Assembly (NCBI RefSeq): GCF_003334255.1
Contig: NZ_QOWU01000132.1
DNA: 2,594 nucleotides
Direction: 5' to 3' (one strand)
DNA from: Escherichia coli
GTDB lineage: Bacteria > Pseudomonadota > Gammaproteobacteria > Enterobacterales > Enterobacteriaceae
Of this stretch, positions 2,373 through 2,448 are shown in pieces (within the stretch, counting starts at the first letter, position 1; each line of letters opens with the position of its first letter). Made by a program: the position numbers and the translations under genes. The notes under the pieces were generated by a model. The model saw nothing but the letters and a program-made list of their open reading frames with translations, was not told where the DNA came from and did no database searches.

Positions 2373-2448
2373 GCCCTTTAGCTCAGTGGTGAGAGCGAGC
2401 GACTCATAATCGCCAGGTCGCTGGTTCAAATCCAGCAAGGGCCACCAT
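2373..2448 (+). tRNA. ileZ: tRNA with CAU anticodon, ileX/ileZ-like (probable tRNA-Ile2 decoding AUA via lysidine; elongator tRNA-Met not excluded)
   Basis: 76-nt cloverleaf traced by hand. Acceptor GGCCCTT/AAGGGCC (7 bp), D arm GCTC-AGTGGTGA-GAGC, anticodon loop CTCATAA (anticodon CAT at 2406-2408), T arm GCTGG-TTCAAAT-CCAGC, discriminator A, encoded CCA (2446-2448). Close to my memory of E. coli ileX. One A:C mismatch at the base of the anticodon stem (27:43). Symbol is by analogy with the Stx-phage ileZ-argN-argO cluster. Confidence 0.85.

Follow-up and report, generated by a model that had tools for sequence, protein, structure and literature searches.

The A27.C43 mismatch of a prophage-borne ileZ tRNA in Escherichia coli: a conserved state in a probable AUA-decoding tRNA-Ile2

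Does an unpaired A.C at the top of the anticodon stem make a prophage-borne CAU tRNA of Escherichia coli a doubtful reader of AUA, or is this simply how the gene is built? The question arises from a stretch of 2,594 nucleotides (contig NZ_QOWU01000132.1, hereafter the window) that carries an ileX-like tRNA without a pair at position 27:43. A sequence-only reading had regarded the mismatch as a peculiarity with possible effects on recognition by the lysidine synthetase TilS or by IleRS, and hence on the choice between AUA (Ile) and AUG (Met). Here, we conclude with high confidence that the gene is ileZ, the canonical auxiliary tRNA-Ile2 of lambdoid and Stx prophages, which would decode AUA and in which A27.C43 is the fixed wild-type state and a tolerated non-Watson-Crick combination. 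The basis for this is fourfold: identity with ileZ of phage 933W, conservation, intact recognition determinants, and the pattern at 27:43 across the whole tRNA class.

The tRNA gene and its prophage surroundings

ARAGORN predicted one tRNA in the window, with anticodon CAT, and cmscan matched it over its full length to the Rfam tRNA family (RF00005) at 72.5 bits, the gathering score being 29, and marked the outermost pair of the anticodon stem as non-canonical (Table 1). Segmentation of the 76 nt gave an acceptor stem GGCCCUU/AAGGGCC followed by A73 and CCA, a D-arm GCUC-AGUGGUGA-GAGC followed by G26, an anticodon stem with the 5' strand AGCGA (2398-2402) and the 3' strand TCGCC (2410-2414) enclosing the loop CTCATAA (2403-2409; CAU at 2405-2407), a variable loop AGGUC, and a T-arm GCUGG-UUCAAAU-CCAGC. 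All 20 cloverleaf pairs other than 27:43 are intact. The mismatch noticed earlier is therefore real, but it had been placed one nucleotide too far downstream: positions 2399 and 2415 hold G28 and A44, and a range of 2399-2415 leaves out A27 itself.

The predicted nearest-neighbour cost to the cloverleaf of losing the 27:43 pair is only ~1.7 kcal/mol; this figure comes from evaluated cloverleaf energies, since minimum free energy folds were uninformative. The minimum free energy fold of 2372-2447 without modifications is not a cloverleaf and pairs the region 27-33 with the region 45-51. It has the same shape and the same value (-33.5 kcal/mol) for ileZ and for its G.U and A-U variants, and is thus independent of 27:43.

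The window is the part of a lambdoid prophage that governs late regulation. Genes for a DUF968/YdfU protein and RusA precede a gene for a 273-aa Q-type late antitermination protein, which places the tRNA in the region of lambdoid late-gene regulation. The Q-like protein contains three CxxCxGxG motifs (CPECGGKG, CKDCRGRG, CQRCGGRG) and a CPCC motif, which together resemble a DnaJ-type zinc-finger region. A strong terminator-like GC hairpin with a T-run stands 5' of the tRNA, as in the 933W record, where terminators are annotated upstream of the tRNA genes of the equivalent region, and is followed immediately on its 3' side by a counterpart of the 933W pT element. No consensus sigma-70 site came up when the DNA 5' of the tRNA was scanned for promoters, and this element was not picked up either, so that the pT counterpart, which relies on the 933W annotation, is putative. 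The position after Q and the terminator-like hairpin, together with the pT counterpart, suggests late and/or autonomous transcription of the tRNA. No stx genes were found within the window.

Table 1. Coordinates of features in the window and of comparison tRNAs in other records
Feature	Record	Position	Strand	Evidence or remark
DUF968/YdfU gene	window	1-1029		
rusA	window	1030-1392		
Q-type late antitermination protein gene (273 aa)	window	1407-2228	+	'antitermination protein' annotation in E. coli G1/2, where the DNA is identical; translation
Terminator-like GC hairpin (2309-2328) and T-run, 5' of tRNA (putative)	window	2309-2334	+	terminator scan
pT counterpart, putative tRNA promoter, TTGCGG-17 nt-TATTAT	window	2334-2362	+	read against 933W pT feature
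ileZ, prophage tRNA-Ile2 gene, CCA encoded	window	2372-2447	+	ARAGORN; Rfam; identity with 933W ileZ; PGAP
A27, 5' member of unpaired 27:43	window	2398	+	segmentation; cmscan non-canonical mark
C43, 3' member of unpaired 27:43	window	2414	+	segmentation; cmscan non-canonical mark
argN-type tRNA-Arg, anticodon UCG, first 63 nt, cut in T-arm	window	2455-2517	+	partial Rfam match
IS421 (IS4 family), left end	window	2518-2594	+	19-bp terminal inverted repeat CATAAGCGCTAACTTAAGG at 2518-2536
ileZ of 933W	AF125520.1	21120-21195		
A27-U43 copy of ileZ	NZ_CP169008.1	2569693-2569768		one per genome
A27-U43 copy of ileZ	NZ_CP077585.1	2670859-2670934		one per genome
ileX orthologue with C.U or U.C	L205	2727-2803		
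ileX orthologue with C.U or U.C	L245	9039-9115		
ileX orthologue with C.U or U.C	L190	2551-2627		
ileX orthologue with C.U or U.C	L139	2134-2210		
P1-like tRNA-Ile(CAU) with G27.A43 (H171)	AF503408.1	73315-73390		
P1-like tRNA-Ile(CAU) with G27.A43	viral loci L010, L020, L029			

Next after ileZ in the ileZ-argN-argO cluster comes the argN-type tRNA-Arg. The window retains a fragment of it, which scores 31 bits in the Rfam tRNA model and was missed by ARAGORN. Its intact form has 77 nt in E. coli G1/2 and in 933W. In strain AJ6, IS421 sits at the same site with a perfect inverted repeat; past the element, the target-site duplication GGGCGGGTCC leads into the remaining 3' part of the tRNA-Arg. 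Over positions 1-2518, the window matches E. coli G1/2 and several further strains at 100% identity; beyond this stretch, both the argN- and the argO-type tRNA-Arg genes are intact in G1/2, and strains such as this one have an uninterrupted ileZ-argN-argO trio. The arrangement is shared with 933W, where ileZ is likewise the first gene of ileZ-argN-argO downstream of Q, with a terminator-like hairpin and a pT-like element on its 5' side and the argN-type tRNA-Arg on its 3' side. However, 933W carries a NinG-NinH-Q module and the window a different lambdoid module (DUF968-RusA-273-aa Q), and in the window IS421 interrupts the argN homologue.

Conservation of A27.C43 in ileZ

The window tRNA is identical over 76 of 76 nt, including A27.C43, to 933W ileZ, which is annotated as 'tRNA-Ile, codon recognized AUA', and the copy in VT2-Sakai is identical as well. 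The gene and its exact sequence are thus already known from the 933W GenBank record AF125520.1. By BLAST counts, 3,057 of the 5,426 complete E. coli genomes contain members of the ileZ family, a single genome holding as many as 12, and the exact 76-mer was recovered from 2,776 complete E. coli records and from 278 of 284 matching phage records; our scans of sequence collections are to be read as samples and not as censuses. When positions 27 and 43 were left free in a scan of viral contigs, the exact window tRNA was still dominant (73 of 120 among the matches listed), and these 73 copies among the matches listed stood in front of several different 3' flanks.

Departures from A.C were few. Two scans covering 2.9 million viral contigs gave four contigs with the local ileZ backbone and another combination at 27:43: two share the acceptor stem of ileZ and carry C.U and U.C, both unpaired, and the remaining two are a member of an unrelated family with A.A and an unrelated GC-rich tRNA with C-G. 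Among the loci inspected, L122 is an unrelated GC-rich tRNA cut by the end of its contig. A 'repaired' G27-C43 version, one transition away, had no exact record in the complete E. coli genomes. The A27-U43 version (C43U) had two, in genomes that each hold 7-9 copies of the ileZ family (Table 1). Three viral loci (L040, L063 and L086) contain degenerate ileZ copies in which the 3' two-thirds including A27 and C43 are kept, while the 5' parts are unrelated or truncated; they may be products of recombination or decay.

The tRNA is also far better conserved than its surroundings. Across 70 distinct haplotypes, defined by 150 nt of upstream sequence plus the tRNA, 148 of the 150 upstream columns vary with a mean minor fraction of 0.30, whereas variation affects 16 of the 76 tRNA columns with a mean minor fraction of 0.007, positions 27-43 being fixed by the pattern used for selection. 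Part of this strong conservation could derive from recent prophage spread and recombination rather than from selection. In any case, A:C is the conserved state of ileZ, that of 933W included. This is the outcome which the sequence-only reading had itself named as making the mismatch uninformative, and it leaves the view of a telling peculiarity of this copy or a likely defect without support.

Other suggestions of the sequence-only reading held well. The window tRNA is indeed ileX-like, with 68 of 76 nt identical, and ileX does carry G27.U43 as had been stated: 5,424 of the 5,426 complete E. coli genomes have this sequence annotated as tRNA-Ile (median 2 copies), and it is located in the neighbourhood of rpoD and mug. 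The genes ileX and ileY encode the chromosomal tRNA-Ile2 that is modified with lysidine and reads AUA; ileZ, by comparison, is prophage-borne and auxiliary. ileZ and ileX/ileY share their length, the anticodon loop, the pairs 28:42 to 31:39, the T-stem, and C4-G69, C5-G68, U12-A23, C29-G41 and A73. Eight positions differ: pair 6:67 is U-A in ileZ and C-G in ileX (a compensatory change), 26/44 is G/A versus A/U, 27:43 is A.C versus G.U, and single differences are found at position 20 in the D-loop (window 2391) and position 59 in the T-loop. The elongator tRNA-Met genes metT and metU have the CAU anticodon, the CUCAUAA loop and A73 in common with ileZ. However, the K-12 genes, which are identical to each other, possess U4-A69, A5-U68, U29-A41 and a Watson-Crick C27-G43, none of which is present in ileZ with its C4-G69, C5-G68 and A27.C43.

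Position 27:43 in the tRNA-Ile2 class and the determinants of TilS and IleRS

Recognition by TilS is where the mismatch might matter most. E. coli TilS determinants comprise U33, C34, A37, G27.U43, C4-G69 and C5-G68 in the passage of PMC12069591 that cites Ikeuchi 2005, which bears out the suspicion that 27:43 is relevant to this enzyme. The dominant identity elements of EcTilS are C4-G69 and C5-G68 (PMC11947777, PMC12514573), and substitutions in the anticodon stem impair the enzyme (PMC11947777). In ileZ, the loop CUCAUAA provides the CAU anticodon with U33, C34, A37 and A38, the acceptor stem provides C4-G69 and C5-G68, and among the determinants reported, G27.U43 is replaced by A27.C43 and all others are intact. 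As to IleRS, which had also been named, 27:43 lies outside the published identity set of A73, C4-G69, U12-A23, C29-G41, the anticodon, A37 and A38 (PMC9976931). Of this set, which also has the D-loop elements G16/U20/U21, the comparison covered A73, C4-G69, U12-A23, C29-G41, A35, U36, A37 and A38, all of which are present in ileZ; the D-loops of ileZ and ileX differ at one position.

How strictly G27.U43 is kept in this class can be read from CAU tRNAs of different species, sampled for G68/G69, A73 and CCA. Among the matches listed, this yielded 101 distinct tRNAs, all but five with C4-G69 and C5-G68, and those five have a U.G wobble at 4:69 or 5:68. In these 101 (among the matches listed), Watson-Crick pairing is nearly universal at 28:42 to 31:39, while at 27:43 there are 47 tRNAs with G.U, 37 with a Watson-Crick pair, two with U.G and 15 with a mismatch. 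As G27.U43 is thus not universal in the tRNA-Ile2 family, ileZ is still assigned to the tRNA-Ile2 type. None of the 101 chromosomal tRNAs among the matches listed has A.C, which points to an A.C solution specific to the phage family.

By lineage, the 28 distinct chromosomal tRNAs of Gamma- and Betaproteobacteria among the matches listed include 21 with G.U, three with C.U, four with U.C and none with a Watson-Crick pair, versus 37 Watson-Crick pairs in 73 tRNAs from other phyla (among the matches listed), with the reservation that the Fisher test comparing the two groups ignores phylogeny. An alignment of 40 distinct sequences from coliphage families and Gamma- and Betaproteobacterial chromosomes, from which locus L183 was left out for its mis-set 5' end, places this in the context of the whole molecule. 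Among the matches listed, pairing amounts to 98.1% over its cloverleaf, where double changes account for 139 cells; 20 of the 21 pairs are ~100% canonical, and 15 of the 16 unpaired cells sit at 27:43, where G.U occurs 25 times, an unpaired combination 15 times and a Watson-Crick pair never. If the seven states observed at 27:43 had arisen by chance, the probability of avoiding all four Watson-Crick states would be ~0.07, which on its own makes for a weak neutrality argument.

In Shewanella, Psychromonas, Methylomagnum and Amphritea, the C.U and U.C tRNAs immediately follow rpoD, identified by NCBIfam NF004208 above its cut-off. Since this is also the neighbourhood of ileX in E. coli, they are housekeeping ileX orthologues, and a 27:43 mismatch therefore occurs in housekeeping genes too. 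Coliphages add a further case. The tRNA-Ile(CAU) of P1 and P7 (also found in RCS47, SJ46 and D6) is of the tRNA-Ile2 type with C4-G69, C5-G68 and an unpaired 27:43, and in this respect resembles ileZ. Yet it has a purine-purine G27.A43 (A.A in one variant), differs at 26/44, in the T-stem and at 6:67 as well, and belongs to an unrelated phage lineage. Coliphages have left 27:43 unpaired in two independent ways.

How A27.C43 might be accommodated can be outlined from these data. Two transitions lead to it from G27.U43, leaving 27 a purine and 43 a pyrimidine, and with a protonated adenine the A.C can adopt a G.U-like wobble geometry; a C.A+ wobble is an isostere of G.U that can take its place (PMC5769748). 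Taken with the pattern across the class, this is most simply read as tRNA-Ile2 of Gamma- and Betaproteobacteria keeping the upper end of its anticodon stem non-Watson-Crick, as opposed to C27-G43 in tRNA-Met, with A.C as one combination that would be tolerated. An A.C pair is weaker than G.U at neutral pH. As a non-Watson-Crick 27:43 is the rule in the class, A.C most likely preserves the contrast with tRNA-Met and does not disturb it. The C34 of ileZ would then be converted to lysidine by the TilS of the host, and the modified tRNA would be charged with isoleucine by IleRS and read the rare AUA codon. Acceptance by TilS, charging with Ile and reading of AUA are the most likely behaviour of ileZ judging from its sequence, as the literature searched for ileZ, argN and argO yielded no experiments on this gene. 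The rare AUA codon is over-represented near ileZ, which we count as demand for this tRNA. In 933W stx2A (L125, 1843-2802), ATA is used for 15 of the 20 Ile codons and thus 15 of 320 codons overall; in the window (1-2228), its share across the three open reading frames is 9 of 738.

Alternative readings and significance

The most serious alternative holds that a tRNA lacking the literal G27.U43 is a poor or partial TilS substrate, so that a substantial fraction retains C34, is charged by MetRS and reads AUG, resulting in dual identity or simply in an extra tRNA-Met. The listing of G27.U43 among E. coli TilS determinants (PMC12069591, in the part citing Ikeuchi 2005), the sensitivity of EcTilS to anticodon-stem substitutions (PMC11947777) and the acceptance of Met by tRNA-Ile2 without modification (PMC9976931) would fit such a scenario, as does the lack of A.C in chromosomal tRNA-Ile2 among the matches listed. 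On the other hand, the dominant elements C4-G69 and C5-G68 are intact in ileZ, and the literal G.U is dispensable in the class, as illustrated by the syntenic C.U and U.C orthologues of ileX and the G.A of P1. Moreover, the ileZ allele is strongly conserved beside AUA-rich genes, and identical copies are classed as tRNA-Ile by PGAP. We consider this alternative unlikely.

Still less probable, and in our view very much so, is that ileZ is a decaying, functionless passenger of lambdoid prophages and that the A:C began as an early lesion which hitch-hiking then fixed. Some observations would fit: L040, L063 and L086 are degenerate copies with replaced 5' halves, the adjacent argN-type tRNA of the window was destroyed by IS421, and the host already possesses two ileX/ileY copies. 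However, a passenger in decay is difficult to reconcile with a tRNA far more conserved than its flanks, with 20 other intact cloverleaf pairs and a compensatory C-G to U-A change at 6:67, and with an exact sequence kept in thousands of independent prophages and also in phage lineages whose Q modules and flanks differ. That the window copy was wrongly sequenced or assembled, or bears a private mutation, has a vanishingly small probability, and is ruled out by the identical 76-mer in 2,776 complete E. coli and 278 phage records as well as at least 73 viral contigs. What remains as by far the best account is an AUA-decoding tRNA-Ile2 with a tolerated A27.C43.

Being the normal state of a long-known gene, the mismatch is ordinary, and A27.C43 is neither a defect nor a strain marker. 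A practical point concerns annotation, where tRNA-Met and tRNA-Ile are in conflict for the same gene: ARAGORN and many GenBank phage records assign it to tRNA-Met and PGAP to tRNA-Ile, AF125520 labels it tRNA-Ile/ileZ, and one 933W record uses ileX. ARAGORN gives the label 'Met' to both ileZ and metT/metU because it considers the anticodon only.

What might reach beyond this one gene is the observation that 27:43 of proteobacterial tRNA-Ile2 is systematically non-Watson-Crick, be it G.U, Y.Y, A.C or G.A, and that two unrelated coliphage lineages have their own variants. A more far-reaching reading, which we regard as rather improbable, is that TilS of Gamma- and Betaproteobacteria reads a non-Watson-Crick 27:43 and not G.U as such, or that this state excludes MetRS or other enzymes, and that coliphages tune lysidinylation through it. 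If true, the A.C of lambdoid ileZ and the G.A of P1 would be different solutions that set the lysidinylation efficiency of auxiliary tRNAs, and, given a protonation-dependent A.C, the fractions of Ile/AUA and Met/AUG could shift with conditions. The natural variants at 27:43 thus offer test substrates for how TilS reads the anticodon-stem and hinge region of tRNA-Ile2.
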